Position numbers and translations under genes: made by a program. From Alphaproteobacteria bacterium (GTDB taxonomy: Bacteria > Pseudomonadota > Alphaproteobacteria > JAOXRX01): a stretch of 64,000 nt of DNA. Below the pieces are notes generated by a model. It saw only the letters and a program-made list of their open reading frames with translations, was not told the origin of the DNA and ran no database searches. Numbering within the stretch: the stretch's first letter is position 1; each line of letters starts with the position of its first letter. Location of the stretch: the NCBI GenBank assembly GCA_025800285.1, contig JAOXRX010000062.1, forward strand, positions 2,346 to 66,345, in the 5' to 3' direction. Of this stretch, positions 2,675-11,292 are shown in pieces.

Positions 2675-4870
2675 ATGAGTACTGAAAATTTAGAATATTT
2701 ATTCGCTCCTAAATCAGTTGCGATGATTGGTGCTTCCAATAGAGAACAATCAATTGGAAGAGTTGTTACAGAAAACCTAATTAAAGGTGAATTCCAAGGG
2801 GAATTAATGTTAGTTAACCCTAAAGGTGCTGAAATCTGTGGTATGCAATCATACCAAAGCATAGATGATTTACCTACAGTTCCAGAATTAGCTCTTATAG
2901 CTATTCGTCCAGATTTTATCCCAGCTACATTAGAGTCTTTAGGTCAAAAAGGAACTAAAGTTGCTCTTATCATCACTGCTGGTTTCGGTGAAATGGGAGA
3001 AGAAGGTAAGAAAAAAGAAGCAGAATTAGTAGAAATCGCTAAAAAATATGGCATGAGAATTGCTGGGCCAAACTGTCTTGGTGTTATGACTCCAGAGGTT
3101 GGACTTGCTGCTGGTTTCGTTATTTGTCCTCCTTTAAAAGGTAATATCGCTTTTGCTGCTCAATCAGGAGCTATCTTAAGTTCAGTTGTTGATTTAGCTA
3201 TGGCTAAAAACATTGGTTTCTCACATCTACTATCTTTAGGTAACATGGCTGATGTTGATTTCGATGATGTTCTAGAACAATTTGGTAACGATGATGCAAC
3301 AGATGCTATAATTATGTATATGGAATCTGTTAAAGAAACAAGAGAATTTATGAAAGCTGCTCGTGAAGCTGCTAAGAAAAAACCTGTTATTTTAATCAAA
3401 TCAGGTAAATCTGATGCTGCTGCAGAAGCTGCTGCTTCTCATACAGGTGCTCTTGCTGGTTCAGATGCTGTTTATGATGCTGCATTCAAAAGAGCTGGTT
3501 TAATTAGAGTTGAAAACCTAAGCGAAATGTTCCAAATTGTTGAAATTATCGCTTCAGGTAAAAAAATTAATAATAACAAATTAACTATTGTTACAAATGG
3601 TGGTGGTATTGGTCTTCTAGCAACAGATGCTTTGATTTCTGATGGTGGTGAACTAACTGAACTAAACCCTGAAACAAAAGCTAAACTTGATGAAGTGCTA
3701 CCTGAAACATGGTCTCATGCAAACCCAATTGATATTATTGGTGATGCTCCAGGAAAAAGATATGAAGATTCTGTAAGAGAAGTATTAGAAGATGAGAACG
3801 ATGACTCAGCTGTTTTAGTTCTTAACTGCCCTCTTGCTGTTTGTGATTCTGCAGATGGTGCAAATGGTGTTGTTAATGCTATTAAAGCTACAAACTCTGA
3901 TAGAGTTGTTTTAGCTAACTGGTTAGGTGCTGGTGCTGCAGAAACTTCAAAGAAAATATTTATGGATAACAAAATTCCTTCATTCAACACTCCTGCTGAA
4001 GCTACAAAAGGATTTATGTATCTTGCTAACTATAAAAAAGATCAAGACTTTTTAAACAGCCCTGCTGTTCCAGTTGCTGATGCTGAATACGATTATGATG
4101 CAGTTAAAGCTATTATAGATGGAGCAATTGCTGAAGGAAGAGAATGGTTATCAGAATATGAAGCTAAGAATGTAGCTCATGCATATTCAATCCCTGTAGC
4201 TAGAACTATTAATGTAGCTACTACAGAAGAAGCTATCGAAGCAGGTGAAGATCTAGGTTATCCTTTAGTGTTAAAAATCTTCTCTCATGATATTACTCAT
4301 AAATCTGATGCTGGTGGTGTTGTTCTAAACATTAAAACTCCAGAACAGTTGAAAACAGAATGTGAAGAAATGCTTGTAAGAGTTGGTAAAAATTGTCCAG
4401 ATGCAAAAATCGAAGGATTCTCAGTTCAAAACTTTGTAAATCTTGATCACTATCACGAATTAATCGTTGGTGTTAATGAAGATGCTCAGTTCGGTCCTGT
4501 TGTTCTATTCGGTAGAGGTGGTACAGCTGTTGAAATCATTAAAGATACAACTTTAGAACTTCCTCCAATGGATATGAATATTGCAACTTCTATGATTAAT
4601 AGAACTAAAGTTTCTGAACTTATGAATGGATACAGAGATGTTCCAGCTGCAAGAAAAGACTTAGTTGCTAAAATTATGGTTAATGTTTGTAAACTAATTG
4701 AAGATTTCCCAGAAATCATTGAATTAGATTTAAACCCTATCTTTGCTAACCACGAAGAAGCTATTGCTCTTGATGCTAGAGTATTAGTAAAACCTTTCAA
4801 TGGTGAAGATAGAAGTGCTAGATTTGCAATTAATCCAAAATCTACATCAAAAGATACAGCTGGTATTTAA
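2675..4870 (+). CDS. Acetate--CoA ligase, ADP-forming, fused alpha/beta (CoA-binding, succinyl-CoA-synthetase-like and ATP-grasp domains). Acyl-CoA synthetase, NDP-forming.
   Basis: N-terminal CoA-binding motif SVAMIGASNREQSIGR. Central HTGALAG-type phospho-His loop (ASHTGALAGSDAVYDAAFKRAG). C-terminal ATP-grasp region. The start is placed at ATG 2675 downstream of the predicted promoter; the alternative GTG at 2630 is in frame. Confidence 0.8.
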   Translation: MSTENLEYLFAPKSVAMIGASNREQSIGRVVTENLIKGEFQGELMLVNPKGAEICGMQSYQSIDDLPTVPELALIAIRPDFIPATLESLGQKGTKVALIITAGFGEMGEEGKKKEAELVEIAKKYGMRIAGPNCLGVMTPEVGLAAGFVICPPLKGNIAFAAQSGAILSSVVDLAMAKNIGFSHLLSLGNMADVDFDDVLEQFGNDDATDAIIMYMESVKETREFMKAAREAAKKKPVILIKSGKSDAAAEAAASHTGALAGSDAVYDAAFKRAGLIRVENLSEMFQIVEIIASGKKINNNKLTIVTNGGGIGLLATDALISDGGELTELNPETKAKLDEVLPETWSHANPIDIIGDAPGKRYEDSVREVLEDENDDSAVLVLNCPLAVCDSADGANGVVNAIKATNSDRVVLANWLGAGAAETSKKIFMDNKIPSFNTPAEATKGFMYLANYKKDQDFLNSPAVPVADAEYDYDAVKAIIDGAIAEGREWLSEYEAKNVAHAYSIPVARTINVATTEEAIEAGEDLGYPLVLKIFSHDITHKSDAGGVVLNIKTPEQLKTECEEMLVRVGKNCPDAKIEGFSVQNFVNLDHYHELIVGVNEDAQFGPVVLFGRGGTAVEIIKDTTLELPPMDMNIATSMINRTKVSELMNGYRDVPAARKDLVAKIMVNVCKLIEDFPEIIELDLNPIFANHEEAIALDARVLVKPFNGEDRSARFAINPKSTSKDTAGI

Positions 4871-5571: not shown

Positions 5572-7233
5572 ATGAAAAAAGAATTAGTTGAAAGACTTAT
5601 AAGTGATGATTTACCTTCAATCGCAGAAATTGAAGCTAAATACCCAAAAAGAAATCTGCCAGAAGGAGCCGTTGTTAGTAGAACAGGACCATCTCCTACT
5701 GGATTTATGCATATTGGAACTATATATCAAACAATGATATCTAAAAAGCTTGTAGAGCAGACTAATGGAAAGTTTTTCTTGAGAATTGAAGATACTGATA
5801 CAAAAAGAGAAGTTTCTGGTGCTAGAGAAATAATTGTTGATTATCTTATTAAATATGGATTATTAAACAAAGAAATTGATGAGGGACCATTTTTAAATGA
5901 TTCTGATAAAGATAACTATGGACCTTATACTCAAAGCAAGAGAGCTAATATATATAAAGCATACATAAAATATATGCTTGAAAATGATTTAGCATACCCT
6001 TGTTTTTGTACAACAGAACAGTTAAATGAAGTTCGTGAAGGACAAAAGAAAGAAGACTTAAGAACTGGATATTATGGTAACTTTGCTAGATGTAGAAGAT
6101 TATCTGAAGAAGATATTATAGCTAAACTTGATGCGGGATTAGATTATGTAATTAGATTTAAATCTAATGGTAAACACTCAAATAAAATCCTAATTGAAGA
6201 CTCTGTTAAAGGGAAAAGAAATATAGCAGAAAATGATTTTGATATTCCAATCCTTAAAGGAGATGGACTGCCAAGCTATCATTTTGCTCATTTAATTGAT
6301 GACCATTTAATGGGAACCAATCTTGTAGTTAGAGGTGATGAATGGATATCATCTCTGCCTTTACACTTACAACTATTTGAAACAATGGGATGGGAGGCTC
6401 CTAAGTATGCTCATATATCCCCTATTGAAAAAATGGATGATGGAAAGAGAAGAAAGTTATCAAAAAGAAAAGATCCAGAAGCAAGTGTTGTTTATTATGA
6501 TGAAGTTGGATATCCTGTGCAAGCAGTGTTGGAATATCTATTTAATATAGCTAATTCTGACTTTGAGCAATGGAGAAAACAAAACCCTTTAGCTGATTTA
6601 AAAGACTTTGAATTAAAAGTGAATAAGCTAAATAAAAGTGGAGCTTTATTTGATTTTGATAAGTTAAATCATGTTTCTCAAAATTATATATCTAGATTAA
6701 CTAAAGATGAAGTCTATAATGAATTAGAGAAATGGGCTATTAATAGAGATGCTCACTTGCATAAAAAAATGGTGCAGAATAAAGATTACATCAAAGAAAT
6801 AATTAATATTGAGAGAGAAAATACAAACAAACCAAGAAAAGACATTACTATGTGGTCTCAAGCTTGGGATACTATGTCTTACTTCTTTGATGATGAATTT
6901 TCTCTGACAAAAGAAGAGTTTATGGAAAAAGCTGGCAACCCAGATCCTGCAGTGGCAAAAGCTATTGTTATTGATTTTATTGCTGATTATGATAAAAATA
7001 TGGCTCTAGATAAATCGGAATGGTTTAACTCATTTAAAGAGCTAGCAGAAAAACATGGATATTGCACAAATGGTAAAGAATATAAGAAGAACCCTGATGC
7101 ATATAAAGGTTCAATGGCTAACTTTGCCAAGATATTCAGAGTTCTGTTAACAGGAGAGCCTCAATCACCAGATTTATACTATATGATGCATGTAATGGGC
7201 AAAGAAAGAGTATTTAAAAGAATATCTATATAA
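5572..7233 (+). CDS. gltX: Glutamate--tRNA ligase (class I aaRS), 553 aa with an extended C-terminal region.
   Basis: HIGH-type motif PSPTGFMHIGT and KMSKS-type motif KLSKRK, in GluRS/GlnRS family architecture. Confidence 0.75.
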   Translation: MKKELVERLISDDLPSIAEIEAKYPKRNLPEGAVVSRTGPSPTGFMHIGTIYQTMISKKLVEQTNGKFFLRIEDTDTKREVSGAREIIVDYLIKYGLLNKEIDEGPFLNDSDKDNYGPYTQSKRANIYKAYIKYMLENDLAYPCFCTTEQLNEVREGQKKEDLRTGYYGNFARCRRLSEEDIIAKLDAGLDYVIRFKSNGKHSNKILIEDSVKGKRNIAENDFDIPILKGDGLPSYHFAHLIDDHLMGTNLVVRGDEWISSLPLHLQLFETMGWEAPKYAHISPIEKMDDGKRRKLSKRKDPEASVVYYDEVGYPVQAVLEYLFNIANSDFEQWRKQNPLADLKDFELKVNKLNKSGALFDFDKLNHVSQNYISRLTKDEVYNELEKWAINRDAHLHKKMVQNKDYIKEIINIERENTNKPRKDITMWSQAWDTMSYFFDDEFSLTKEEFMEKAGNPDPAVAKAIVIDFIADYDKNMALDKSEWFNSFKELAEKHGYCTNGKEYKKNPDAYKGSMANFAKIFRVLLTGEPQSPDLYYMMHVMGKERVFKRISI

Positions 7234-7295
7234 ATTCTTTTAACCTAAATCAATTTTTCTGCAATTCTGACGAGCGGAGATGAGAAAGTTGTAGT

Positions 7296-7680
7296 GTCAT
7301 TTTGAGCGACTGCAAGGAGTCGAAAAATCTTTTTATCATGCTATCTTATTCTATCGTCATTCTGAGTGCAACGAAGAATCTTTTCATGCCTGTGTAATAT
7401 TGATTTACATCCTGCATCATAATGAGATTCTTCACTACCACACAAGTGTGTCCGTTTAGAATGACGGACTGAGTATTAAGGTAGTGTTTTTTTAGATAAT
7501 GTCATTCTGAGTGTAACGAAGAATCTTTTCATGCCTGTGTAATATTGATTTACATCCTGCATAACAATGAGATTCTTCACTACCACATAACTGTGTCCGT
7601 TCAGAATGACGACAAATAGAAAGTTTGGCACTTCTTTAGCATAGTGAGATTCTTATTCGCTCTGCTCATCAGAATAATGA
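7296..7680. repeat. Array of MITE-like palindromic elements. Two near-identical ~105-110 bp copies (7364-7468 and 7500-7612) sit between a degenerate left half (7296-7340) and a degenerate right half (7641-7680).
   Basis: The two copies are about 95% identical. Each has terminal inverted repeats gtcattctgagtg...(c/t)tcagaatgac. The flanking half-copies share the pattern tcatt-tgagcg...gaatga. Confidence 0.75.
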
Positions 7681-7712: not shown

Positions 7713-9035
7713 TTACTGTCTCAAAAAATCTTCCAATAGACTTTTAAACAATACTGGTATTTGTTTCATCTCTTTTAGCTCTCTTACATAGGATATTCTC
7801 ATTTGAGTTCTCCCCGGATTCTTAGATAATTTCTTCACACTATAAAATCCTAACATTGGAGATAAAAATAGAGTCCTATAATTCCCTTTTATTTTAACTT
7901 TACCATTTGCTGCACAAAACTTAATAAAGTCAACACAATTAAATTTTTCATCAACAATATTTCTAACATCTATAACGGAGTATAAAGAAGCTTCTGCTTT
8001 TGATACTATAATATCAGGCAGCTCTTTTTTAAAGCCCTCTTCTACAGCGGTTGCGATTTTATAATAATGCTTTCTTTGCTTCTCATACCATCTGTTTAAT
8101 TCAGATTTTTTAGCTTCAGCAAGAGCTCCAAATATATACTGTCCAATAGAATTTGCACATAAATTAGCAGTATTCTCTGAAACAGACTTTTCTATAAACT
8201 CCTTGTTATCGGTTATAAGAGCCCCTATTCTCAAACCGCAAGCATTCCACATTTTAGAGCTTGTCTCTATAGATATTCGCCTTCCTTCAATTCCAGGAAC
8301 TTCTTTATCTGTAATTCCCCAAATACTAATAACTTCTTTATCTTTAGTGTATATAAGCTCTCTATAAGCTTCATCACTTAGCATCCAAATATTATATTTA
8401 ACACATAACTTTGCTAAATCTATCATTTGTTGCTTAGTAAACTTTTGTCCAGTTGGGTTATCACAAGGTATCACCAATAAAGAGTTAGGCTTATGCTTCT
8501 TTATTGCTTTCTCTATTTCTTTGATACAAGGAATAGCAAAAAGCCCATCTTCATTCAGGTGCCTAGTAATAGAAACAGTTTTTCTGCCTAATCTTCTTGC
8601 TATAGACATATAGTTAGTATAAGCAGCATCCATTACCATAAGAGGTTTATTCTTTTTGCCTGCTTCTCCGCATATACCTAAAATAGCTAATTCCATGGCC
8701 TTTGAACCACCGTCTGTTATTTGAGTATAAAGATTACTAATATCAAACCCTTCATGTTTTAATATATTCAAAAAAGCATTGTTAGCCTCTTCTGTTCCTC
8801 TAGTACAAGTATAACTGTTTACCCCATTCGCAAAGGGTGATGTCTCATTACATAAATTAAACATCCTTTTTTGTAAAATCTTAGGCATAGGCAAAGATAC
8901 ATTACCTACAGATACATCTAATACATTAATTTCATTTCTATCTTCTCTTTTTGAGAATTCTAATCCAGACAATCTAATTGCACTTGGCTGTATAGAGTCA
9001 AAATATTTTGACATTCTTGGCATATTATTTTTCAT
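7713..9035 (-). CDS. PLP-dependent aminotransferase, class I/II fold (aspartate/aromatic or LL-DAP-type aminotransferase-like).
   Basis: 440 aa. N-terminal SAIRLSGLEF motif and an internal SSKMWNACGLRIGA PLP-lysine region typical of class I aminotransferases. Confidence 0.7.
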   Translation of the reverse strand: MKNNMPRMSKYFDSIQPSAIRLSGLEFSKREDRNEINVLDVSVGNVSLPMPKILQKRMFNLCNETSPFANGVNSYTCTRGTEEANNAFLNILKHEGFDISNLYTQITDGGSKAMELAILGICGEAGKKNKPLMVMDAAYTNYMSIARRLGRKTVSITRHLNEDGLFAIPCIKEIEKAIKKHKPNSLLVIPCDNPTGQKFTKQQMIDLAKLCVKYNIWMLSDEAYRELIYTKDKEVISIWGITDKEVPGIEGRRISIETSSKMWNACGLRIGALITDNKEFIEKSVSENTANLCANSIGQYIFGALAEAKKSELNRWYEKQRKHYYKIATAVEEGFKKELPDIIVSKAEASLYSVIDVRNIVDEKFNCVDFIKFCAANGKVKIKGNYRTLFLSPMLGFYSVKKLSKNPGRTQMRISYVRELKEMKQIPVLFKSLLEDFLRQ

Positions 9036-9180: not shown

Positions 9181-9786
9181 ATGTCATCAGTATTAACAGT
9201 AGAAGATAAAAAGATAATTAATAGATTATCTGAAATTGAAAACTTTGATAATTACAAACCTGTATCTTCTAAAATTTTAAAACAAAAATTAAGGTATGAG
9301 TTTGAAAAAATACACTACACTTTAGACAGACTGTATAACTATAATAATGAAAAATTAGAGATAAAAAACTTTCCTATTCAAAAAATTAAGAACACTAAAC
9401 AAAATAAATATTATTTTTATATGAATCCTCATAAGAAATGTTTGCAATGGGTCTCTGAAGAATTAAGAAAAGATCATGGAGAACCAGATTTCATACCAGA
9501 AAATTGGAAATCAACAGTATTATTAGCAAATATACTAAAGATTTCTAACAATAGACTCTATACTGAAGTAAAAAGAATATATGAAAACAAAAACTCTTGG
9601 GACCCCCAAAAAGAGGGGTTTGAGTTTCCTATTAAAGAAGGTCAAAAAATTAATAAAAAATATACAAAAGGATATTATTTAAATCCTGATAAAAAAGTAA
9701 TGGAATGGTTTAAAAATATAGTAAACAAATCTCTTAAAAATAAAACTAAAAGAAGGGTTAATAATAGCTTTTACATAACTCCTTAA
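9181..9786 (+). CDS. Hypothetical lysine-rich protein, 201 aa, with two internal repeats of a YY(F/L)NP(H/D)KK-x-(L/M)(Q/E)W(V/F) motif.
   Basis: ORF with RBS AAGGAA. Internal repeats YYFYMNPHKKCLQWVSEELRK and KGYYLNPDKKVMEWFKNIVNK. No known domain. Confidence 0.5.
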   Translation: MSSVLTVEDKKIINRLSEIENFDNYKPVSSKILKQKLRYEFEKIHYTLDRLYNYNNEKLEIKNFPIQKIKNTKQNKYYFYMNPHKKCLQWVSEELRKDHGEPDFIPENWKSTVLLANILKISNNRLYTEVKRIYENKNSWDPQKEGFEFPIKEGQKINKKYTKGYYLNPDKKVMEWFKNIVNKSLKNKTKRRVNNSFYITP

Positions 9787-9857
9787 AAACTTAGCTGTAC
9801 TTTTATTAAATAATGTGATATTATTATATAATATTTTAATAAAAGGAGATAGGTAAA

Positions 9858-10181
9858 GTGAATAATATTATAATAAATCACAACTGGTTATCCTCTGAAG
9901 ATTTGGCTAAAAGATATAATATAAAAGTATTTGATGCCTTAGATGTAATAGATAAGTTAAAGAAACAAAAAGAAAATTTAGAATATATAAAAGTCGGTAG
10001 AAAAAAGAAAACAGATTTTGTTAATAAAACTTTTATTTCTCCAGAAGAAGACTTTTTAAAGAAAGTAAAAAAAGAATTACAAATAATTCATAAGAAGAGA
10101 ATAGCTATATCACAAAAAATAAAAATAACAAAACAAAAAAGTTTAAGCAAAAAAAGAAATAGAGAGAAGGAAAAAATATAA
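9858..10181 (+). CDS. Hypothetical lysine-rich protein, 107 aa, GTG start.
   Basis: RBS AAGGAGA 7 nt upstream of the GTG. The region is extremely A-rich. No known domain. Confidence 0.4.
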   Translation: MNNIIINHNWLSSEDLAKRYNIKVFDALDVIDKLKKQKENLEYIKVGRKKKTDFVNKTFISPEEDFLKKVKKELQIIHKKRIAISQKIKITKQKSLSKKRNREKEKI

Positions 10182-10292
10182 AAATTTAGTTCCTGAAGAT
10201 AGCTTATCTGCAAATGATTTAGAGAAAATTACCAAAATTAGAGCAAACACAATTAGAAAAATTCTAAAAGAATTATATAAATTGAAAGGTTC

Positions 10293-10751
10293 ATGGGGGG
10301 CTCAAAAACTTTTCCCTTCCCTATAGTAAAAGGCTTAAAACTAAGAACTTCTGGTTATGAAGGGTTGTATATATTGGCAGATAAAAAATCAAAGAATTGG
10401 GCTTATAAGCAATTAGGAGCTAACATAAAATCATACATAGATGATTCTTTTTTAAGTTATAAAGATATATCTGAAAAAACAGGTTTAGATACCGAGCTAA
10501 TCAAAAACTTTCTAAGAAATTCATTTGAAAATAAAGAAAACTTAGATAAGTATTTTAAGAACTCTATAGTAAAAGGAAGAAAAAAACATCATTCTTCTAC
10601 ACAAATTTATTTAGACTCTAGCGAAGAGGCCTTAAACTGGTTCAAGCAAGAAATAAAAGTAAAAAGACCTTCAATTGAAGAGGCTAAAAAGACTAAAATA
10701 GTACCTATCTTAAACACAAAAAAAGTTATATCTGAAAGTCTTGTTATATAA
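10293..10751 (+). CDS. Hypothetical lysine-rich protein, 152 aa, sharing the SSEEALNWFKQEIK motif with the 9181-9786 ORF.
   Basis: ORF with RBS GAAAGG. Contains IYLDSSEEALNWFKQEIKVKR, a module similar to those in the neighbouring gene. Confidence 0.45.
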   Translation: MGGSKTFPFPIVKGLKLRTSGYEGLYILADKKSKNWAYKQLGANIKSYIDDSFLSYKDISEKTGLDTELIKNFLRNSFENKENLDKYFKNSIVKGRKKHHSSTQIYLDSSEEALNWFKQEIKVKRPSIEEAKKTKIVPILNTKKVISESLVI

Positions 10752-11185: not shown

Positions 11186-11292
11186 TTTTTCTTCCTTTTT
11201 TTACAGTATTTTATCATAAAAAAGAGTAAAAATCAACATAAGGTGGTAAATTTACCACCTTATGTTATTAAAAATTAAAAAATAAATTAACT

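Follow-up and report, generated by a model that had tools for sequence, protein, structure and literature searches.

A likely cluster of CGTC-class palindromic repeats, with two REPIN-like dimers, in the gltX–aminotransferase spacer of an alphaproteobacterial genome

The 479-nt spacer that separates gltX (glutamate--tRNA ligase) from a convergent class I/II aminotransferase gene, on contig JAOXRX010000062.1 of an unclassified alphaproteobacterial metagenome-assembled genome (MAG; assembly GCA_025800285.1), is likely to hold a cluster of palindromic modules of the CGTC class of repetitive extragenic palindromes (REPs), in which two young REPIN-like dimers have been copied as units. The whole stretch of DNA that was analysed, hereafter the window, covers 64,000 nt with a G+C content of 30%. 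The cluster explains why this spacer is unusually long and structured. The initial annotation of the locus had proposed a group of non-autonomous palindromic repeats, of which the inner two units would be young copies, and this view is upheld here.

Two head-to-head dimers between convergent genes

The core of the cluster consists of two direct repeats of 111 nt (7356-7466 and 7501-7611), which a repeat search found to be 95% identical (105/111), with starts 145 nt apart; Tandem Repeats Finder likewise reports a period of 145 with 2.0 copies at the same site. The two head-to-tail elements of approximately 110 bp and approximately 95% identity first noticed at this locus are thereby confirmed. 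Taken as whole units (7355-7466 and 7500-7611; 111/112 nt), they share 94.6% identity and the same orientation, with 33 nt between them. Each unit is composed of one short-form and one long-form module, with their (C/T)GTC tags facing outward, around a near-identical 41-nt spacer. Dimer A (7355-7466, forward strand), a REPIN-like head-to-head heterodimer, comprises module M2, a spacer at 7383-7423 that holds a small hairpin of its own, and module M3, and dimer B (7500-7611, forward strand) comprises M4, the corresponding spacer at 7528-7568, and M5. By eye, six differences separate the two dimers: they affect the triloop, the spacer, the inner-hairpin loop and a single G taking part in a G.A pair, and none touches a Watson–Crick stem. 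The identity between them begins and ends at the tags, the flanks and the linker being unrelated.

The ends of the units are inverted (left GTCATTCTGAG, right TT(T/C)AGAATGAC), with a terminal inverted repeat of approximately 11 nt, GTCATTCTGA(G/A), at both of them and a second inverted block further in (GAAGAATCT / AGATTCTTC). Inverted ends were thus correctly recognized at the outset, but the literal right end quoted at that time, cactcagaatgac, is absent. The long hairpin expected of each unit was recovered by folding: the full 112 nt of each dimer can be folded into one hairpin, RNA folding yields z-scores of -4.5 and -6.4 (0/200 shuffles as good) and DNA folding z-scores of -2.9 and -4.4 (no shuffle as stable), and both strands fold about equally. 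Rather than one element with terminal repeats, the 110-nt unit consists of two different REP-type modules joined head to head, and the two units behave as REPIN-like replicating units. Indeed, REPINs, which Bertels and Rainey reportedly described in 2011 as REP doublets forming hairpins, are made of two inverted REPs and a spacer copied as one hairpin-forming unit, and they resemble the window units in being intergenic and in producing no target-site duplication. However, REPINs are built from GTAG-type REPs, which flank the single-copy gene of a cognate REP-associated tyrosine transposase (RAYT), whereas the tag in the window is CGTC or TGTC.

Two neighbouring and nearly identical units could also have arisen on the spot, by local duplication or slippage, or as old neighbours homogenized by gene conversion, the repeat being then private to this spacer and never mobile. 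The adjacency of the copies in the same orientation, only 33 nt apart, and the 145-nt period are what such an origin would produce; no other copy exists in the 64 kb, the composite unit is in none of the public collections searched, and the approximately 35 kb of sequence examined from relatives are devoid of modules. Yet tandem duplication of a 145-nt unit should have copied the linker too, and the linkers are unrelated. The linker between the dimers (7467-7499) is unlike the sequence 5′ of A or 3′ of B, and when 7467-7500 was aligned with 7322-7355 and with 7612-7645, 281 and 410 of 1000 shuffles aligned as well. Tandem duplication of the 145-nt unit was rejected on this ground, as no duplication register fits. 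Moreover, the modules belong to a family spread over hundreds of genomes, and a contig of the same genome begins with an element terminus at another locus. A purely local origin thus appears unlikely: the two units represent distinct copies of one discrete element, whose identity could nonetheless have been refreshed by gene conversion between these neighbours. Recent activity of the element, as suggested by the 5% divergence between its copies, is plausible but unproven given this gene conversion alternative.

Regarding the insertion itself, the three pairings tested in the window (M1-M3, dimer A and dimer B) all scored 0 for a target-site duplication. Among 68 dimers elsewhere, 57 displayed none, six displayed 2 nt, four displayed 3 nt and one displayed 8 nt, which is not beyond chance (random expectation for the first three classes: 51, 12 and 3.4). 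These counts bear on the label of MITE (for miniature inverted-repeat transposable element) under which the locus had first been placed, that is, a deletion derivative of an insertion sequence, bounded by terminal inverted repeats and moved by a DDE transposase. A classical MITE would account for inverted ends of approximately 11 nt, a size of approximately 110 nt, an intergenic site and two near-identical copies, but not for the lack of target-site duplication, nor for the nature of the supposed terminal repeat, which folds on itself, carries conserved unpaired bases and covarying stems, and also occurs singly (M1, and about half of the matches in other genomes). In addition, each arm is a different variant of the module, an insertion sequence related to the unit was not encountered near the modules, and no transposase-like recurrent family was spotted beside modules in 240 loci (by eye, without a domain search). 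The unit being a dimer of modules, we dropped this label and consider a MITE origin highly improbable.

Architecture and distribution of the module

All modules follow one layout: an unpaired (C/T)GTC tag, a 5-nt stem, GA(G/A), an inner mini-hairpin, (C/T)GA, the complementary 5-nt stem, and a 3-nt tail (CTC or CTT). The stem starts with A-T, T-A in every module of the window (ATTCT/AGAAT in the inner units), and is followed inward by a tandem G.A / A.G mismatch and one closing Watson–Crick pair, before the inner mini-hairpin. Altogether, five Watson–Crick pairs, the tandem G.A and one or two further pairs form nine stacked positions, two of them non-canonical. The inner hairpin is reduced to a GNA triloop in the short form (or 5 nt counting the closing pair, TGCAA in M2 and TGTAA in M4) and is a hairpin of 14-20 nt in the long form.

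A strict structural scan of the window for this full architecture returned five sites in 64 kb, all within 7296-7610, whereas 0.87 would be expected by chance according to 30 Markov-chain simulations of the window. The first of them, M1 (7295-7331, forward strand; T-GTC-ATTTT-GAG-[CGACT GCAAGG AGT]-CGA-AAAAT-CTT), is a single older module whose 14-nt inner segment holds a 5-bp inner hairpin. The other four make up the dimers: the short forms M2 (7355-7382, forward strand; CGTC-ATTCT-GAG-TGCAA-CGA-AGAAT-CTT) and M4 (7500-7527, forward strand; tag TGTC, triloop GTA), and the long forms M3 (7424-7466, reverse strand; CGTC-ATTCT-AAA-[20-nt inner hairpin]-TGA-AGAAT-CTC) and M5 (7569-7611, reverse strand; CGTC-ATTCT-GAA-[20-nt inner hairpin]-TGA-AGAAT-CTC). 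The tag is CGTC in M2, M3 and M5, and TGTC in M1 and M4. A sixth module, M6 (7646-7680, reverse strand), was read from the sequence as a degenerate relic, ttcATT-ATTCT-GAT-GAGCAGAG-CGA-ata-AGAAT-CTC, which has CATAGTGAGATTCTT in common with the inner copies and fails the strict scan, its tag being ATT for GTC, with GAT for GAG and a 3-nt insertion. BLAST, pattern searches and the structural scan detected no further unit-like sequence in the window. In-frame copies inside genes, whose existence had been envisaged, were not found there either, all modules of the window being intergenic with respect to the list of open reading frames (ORFs).

The two outer modules had originally been taken for the diverged left (7296-7340) and right (7641-7680) halves of an older element. 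To score them, local alignments of M1 and M6 to the inner copies were compared with 1000 dinucleotide shuffles. The left sequence is related to the inner copies, with alignments better than 997/1000 and 991/1000 shuffles, but it is a complete single module, not a half. On the right, a degenerate module is present but its resemblance is weaker, being matched by 1/1000 shuffles for copy 1 and, more marginally, by 42/1000 for copy 2. Outside the modules, the only sequence that the M1 and M6 regions have in common with the inner units is approximately 7-10 nt at the edge of the spacer (left, TTTT(T/C)AT..CATGC; right, CATA(A/G)TGAGATTCTT). Excising both young units and the linker would place M1 and M6 approximately 86 nt apart, i.e. 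within the usual range of dimer spacers. The invasion of an old dimer (M1 + M6) by two younger units is plausible but unproven, and a REP cluster built by successive side-by-side insertions is plausible too and fits equally well as nesting. Among the relatives with 80-81% identical GltX that were examined, no orthologous empty site could be defined, because these genomes do not keep the gene order downstream of gltX.

The module is far from being restricted to this genome. The end motif GTCATTYTGAG-N(2-20)-CGAARAATCT, which matches M1 and M2/M4, was searched in one genome per species and in IMG/VR viral contigs, and was retrieved in at least 120 species genomes, belonging to over 20 phyla (as given by record titles), and in at least 120 viral contigs. 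The matches listed include Nitrospirota, Chloroflexota (several classes), Acidobacteriota, Bacteroidota, Bacillota, Spirochaetota, Campylobacterota, Planctomycetota, Verrucomicrobiota, Actinomycetota, Omnitrophota, Nitrospinota, Fibrobacterota, Melainabacteria, several candidate-phyla-radiation groups and several classes of Pseudomonadota. An inverted partner module lies downstream in 74/147 of the matches listed, with a median spacer of 31.5 nt, the remaining half or so being single, and partner modules display other stems as well (ATCCT/AGGAT, ATTCC/GGAAT, ACCCT/AGGGT, ATGCT/AGCAT, ACTCT/AGAGT). In 108 modules of other genomes, the base 5′ of GTC is T in 85 cases and C in 14. The tail is mostly CTC across genomes (56, versus 13 CTA, 12 CTT, 11 CTG and 3 CCA).

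In order to assess the stem independently of the motif used for the search, modules were picked by tag, internal loop and triloop only, and those matching the search pattern were discarded. A perfect outer stem (5/5 pairs) was found in 40 of these 52 modules (chance 0.7% each), with at least six different stem sequences. Once 38 such modules were aligned with M2 and M4, changes on both sides were observed in 6/7 pairs, with 48 double-change cells versus 13.7 in shuffles (0/500 reaching 48), and 90% of the cells were paired versus 17-50% when the partner was slid by 1-3 columns. The third position of the internal loop co-varies as well (G-C 85, A-T 19, other 4), while the alignment shows no variation at G2, T3 and C4, in either GA dinucleotide, or at the triloop G and A. 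Taken together, covarying stems and constant unpaired bases mark the module as a genuine structure maintained by selection. Known structures of other kinds were not recognized in it: Rfam gave no match to the region at gathering score, and hammerhead and kink-turn readings of the GA-rich core were dropped upon inspection, as the core is unlike CUGANGA and its G.A pairs come without a bulge.

Modules are depleted in long ORFs, where 38% of 284 modules are located, though these ORFs cover 86% of the sequence. Nonetheless, in-frame module translations were noticed inside long ORFs of two viral contigs (L229 4643-5251 and L227 7921-9507, both on the reverse strand; e.g. VILSEAKNL, RFSGASRND), in a way that resembles the in-gene insertions known for Rickettsia palindromic elements (RPEs). 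Two other loci (L101, approximately 200-1700, in a Dehalococcoidia genome, and L111, approximately 3540-4130, in Pedobacter nototheniae) exhibit tandem arrays of five to seven dimers with conserved linkers; unlike the window, where linkers are unrelated, these are true tandem amplifications. The Pedobacter nototheniae locus also contains exactly the short module of the window, GTCATTCTGAGTGCAACGAAGAATCT. Finally, a second conserved motif (TTTTTCCGCAGCCTGT...) lies just 3′ of the dimers in four loci (L105, L117, L019 and L042), on contigs of which several are labelled Acidobacteriota/Terriglobia and one Saccharimonadales, which suggests a larger composite repeat in these genomes.

Relation to known repeats and possible route of copying

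In the survey of Di Nocera, De Gregorio and Rocco (2013, BMC Genomics 14:522; PMC3733652), prokaryotic REPs are divided into GTAG-tagged and CGTC-tagged superfamilies. As described there, the tag of CGTC REPs may be TGTC (CCTC being allowed), their 8-9 bp stems nearly always open with complementary A/T, their loop is 4-5 nt long (longer in some members), and their unpaired 3-nt tail has the consensus CCA. They occur mostly as head-to-head dimers with tags outside and conserved spacers of 20-100 bp, many of them being heterodimers, are predominant in Alphaproteobacteria, are reported in five phyla and come without a dedicated transposase. RPE-4 corresponds to CGTC-4 and RPE-6 to CGTC-1, and the Neisseria repeat dRS3 also belongs to this superfamily; REPs in general are located downstream of genes and thought to act in RNA (PMC3733652).

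The window units share with these CGTC-tagged REPs the CGTC/TGTC tag, the A-T/T-A start of the stem, the presence of a 3-nt tail, though not its CCA consensus, and the head-to-head arrangement around a conserved spacer, often as heterodimers of unequal loop length, but also the occasional clustering, the position downstream of genes or between convergent genes, the alphaproteobacterial host and the lack of a transposase. The likeness to Rickettsia palindromic elements pointed out in the initial annotation is therefore apt, RPE-4 and RPE-6 being members of the same superfamily (PMC3733652) and the host being an alphaproteobacterial MAG. RPE-4, RPE-6 and dRS3 resemble the window module in their ends (GTCATTC...GAATGAC) and in a GAAA/GNA mini-hairpin logic, and the host lineage of the window is alphaproteobacterial. 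Their interiors are different: RPE-6 encodes SFLRKQES, implying GTCATTCCTGCGAAAGCAGGAATC, and as far as can be deduced from the peptides listed in the survey, the interiors of both RPE-6/CGTC-1 and RPE-4/CGTC-4 differ from the window modules, only the ends GTCATTC...GAATC being common. RPEs are furthermore known for in-frame insertion in genes and are hosted by Rickettsia, whereas the window copies are intergenic and belong to an unclassified alphaproteobacterial MAG that is not demonstrably Rickettsia.

We assign the module to the CGTC superfamily, where, judging from the published peptides, it is probably a variant outside the four named families. At one locus (L083), a G.A-type module of the window type is associated in a hybrid dimer with a canonical CGTC-1/dRS3-like partner, GTCATTCCCGCGAAAGCGGGAATCCA (reverse strand), so that both module forms are linked within one element. 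The module also extends to more than 20 phyla among the matches listed, compared with the five reported for the class in the survey. Nothing further on CGTC repeats was retrieved from later papers citing this work, and a literature search with raw sequence strings returned only primer and vector noise.

By analogy with the REP/RAYT and IS200/IS605 systems, copying of the units would go through single-stranded DNA hairpins and be carried out in trans by a structure-specific enzyme of the Y1/HUH type; this enzyme would cleave the DNA at the tag or next to it and transfer the hairpin, leaving the target unduplicated. The new units would have landed beside or inside the older module pair M1 + M6, and would be tolerated at the 3′ ends of two genes, where their hairpins may also stabilize or end both transcripts. 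We infer single-stranded DNA as the active form because the consensus core of the family, GCGNAGC (GCGAAAGC in longer forms), is an ultra-stable mini-hairpin DNA. Stability in DNA is likewise a property of tandem sheared G.A pairs when their context is pyrimidine-GA-purine, which is the case in the module (TGAG/CGAA). The extraordinary stability of GCGNAGC / GCGNNAGC mini-hairpins is reported by Hirao and co-workers (review PMC13037366), in studies devoted to oligonucleotide biophysics and to phage and plasmid priming sites rather than to genomic repeats. While the consensus core is identical to these sequences, the short modules of the window keep the GNA triloop (GTGCAAC, GTGTAAC) with a T-A closing pair instead of C-G.

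Beyond this scheme, the module might represent an undescribed fifth branch of the CGTC class, a motif of approximately 27 nt kept with hardly any change in more than 20 phyla, small-genome candidate-phyla bacteria among them, as well as in viral contigs, along with one conserved copying partner, a proposal that we put forward tentatively and hold to be doubtful. It stems from the invariant unpaired bases (GTC, tandem G.A, GNA triloop), the mostly CTC tail and the co-varying stems, which would point to one conserved partner recognizing and copying the module. Candidates for such a partner would include a novel type of single-strand DNA transposase and a universal protein of replication or repair. 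To our knowledge, no mobilizing enzyme is known for the CGTC class, which is the one large REP class in this situation. A sharply defined variant, with its cross-phylum conservation, clean covariation and GCGNAGC-matching core, constitutes a precise sequence-structure probe in this respect: gene families can be correlated with module counts across genomes, and what copies CGTC repeats becomes directly testable.

The same invariant bases across phyla, in that they imply a conserved binding partner, would also suit a primarily functional signal, either a bidirectional transcript end or stabilizer or a host-protein site, that would have spread by selection for this role. The position of the cluster is suggestive in this regard, as it lies between convergent genes in a spacer where no ordinary intrinsic terminator was found, whereas a relative with 80% identical GltX (L310 5758-5795) has a classic bidirectional intrinsic terminator (AAAAAAAGCCTCATTTATTTGAGGCTTTTTTATT) immediately 3′ of gltX, and as REPs are generally described downstream of genes with a supposed action in RNA (PMC3733652). 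However, even at E-values up to 10, Rfam returned only chance-level eukaryotic families, no T run follows the hairpins, and both strands fold about equally well. Wobble and mismatch positions likewise show no strand preference (partner arms read by eye, not computed), and six modules in one spacer exceed what a signal would need. A signal as the primary nature of the cluster hence seems quite unlikely, although as a secondary use it is compatible with REP modules copied as units, and a secondary role of the hairpins in RNA is plausible.

Contig breaks, further copies and neighbouring genes

In a short-read assembly of this organism (Logan, SRR15960039), whose sequence is 100% identical to that of the window, an interruption coincides with the cluster: one contig ends at 7294, one base 5′ of M1, and the next begins at 7603 with AGAATGACGA. 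The far end of the first contig (L313 1-36) also begins with AGAATGACGA; it is located 27 nt after the nuoF stop codon, approximately 2.25 kb ahead of the window. This site is presumably located between nuoF and nuoG, as expected from the typical order of nuo operons. The first 9 nt of both contigs, AGAATGACG, are found in the window at element termini only (three matches versus 0.23 expected), and because of this restriction the contig end hints at a second element terminus approximately 9.5 kb away in the same genome. In any case, two short-read contigs of one genome stopping at the cluster call for caution among annotators and assemblers. Contig breaks were initially considered as proof of a multi-copy status, but this argument was downgraded since this assembly is also interrupted at a perfect palindrome of 22 nt unrelated to the element (AAGGTGGTAAATTTACCACCTT; 11240-11263), situated between two convergent ORFs, where a Logan contig ends exactly.

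Several results weigh against a cluster of CGTC-class modules copied as units, which we consider likely rather than established. The break at the unrelated palindrome indicates that hairpins alone may cause contig breaks, and the second locus is supported by a contig end of 9-10 nt. The 64-kb window has modules in this one cluster only, and approximately 35 kb from relatives (66-81% GltX identity) are without any module. The composite 112-nt unit was found neither in plasmid or phage records nor in Joint Genome Institute (JGI) metagenome contigs, where a 22-mer of the spacer had no match and where an 18-mer had 65, many of them including an arm of a module from the wider family, but with no match to the composite unit longer than approximately 50 nt. 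A 51-aa ORF across copy 2 similarly had no match among 5.8 billion proteins. By nearest-neighbour energies, single modules of this AT-rich genome are no more stable than shuffles. As for the CGTC class itself, in its four published families, as far as they can be rebuilt from published peptides, the stems are 8-9 bp long and fully complementary, the loops measure 4-5 nt and the tail is CCA, whereas the window module has a 5-bp stem, a tandem G.A, an inner hairpin of variable length and a CTC/CTT tail. Finally, a hidden Markov model built from 17 published RAYT/TIRYT sequences (PMC3733652 supplement) matched nothing in the window or in 120 module loci of other genomes (856 kb), and all-against-all BLAST of the 3,553 ORFs within 1.5 kb of modules (240 loci, 1.96 Mb) revealed no recurrent transposase-like family by eye, without a domain search; judged in the same manner, the families that recur next to modules resemble structural proteins of phages and come from related viral contigs. 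With no enzyme candidate found, the mobilizing step rests on analogy.

On the left of the cluster, gltX (5572-7233, forward strand; Pfam tRNA-synt_1c and Anticodon_2) ends 61 nt before the first module, and a protein identical to its product is recorded at NCBI as 'MAG: Alphaproteobacteria bacterium'. An AT-rich, near-perfect palindrome overlaps the gltX stop codon (7214-7243), with 15-nt arms that are 87% complementary and no loop. On the right, the aminotransferase gene (7713-9035, reverse strand; Pfam Aminotran_1_2), convergent with gltX, encodes 436 aa in the Logan contig and has its stop codon 32 nt past M6. In the relative that carries the intrinsic terminator, a different convergent gene lies beyond it, the gene order 3′ of gltX not being conserved. 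Further along the window, three neighbouring lysine-rich ORFs (9181-10751; 201, 107 and 152 aa), the first of which has no Pfam match, display by eye a common motif of the approximate form (Y/F)(Y/L)xP..K...WFK, and may constitute a small paralogous family.

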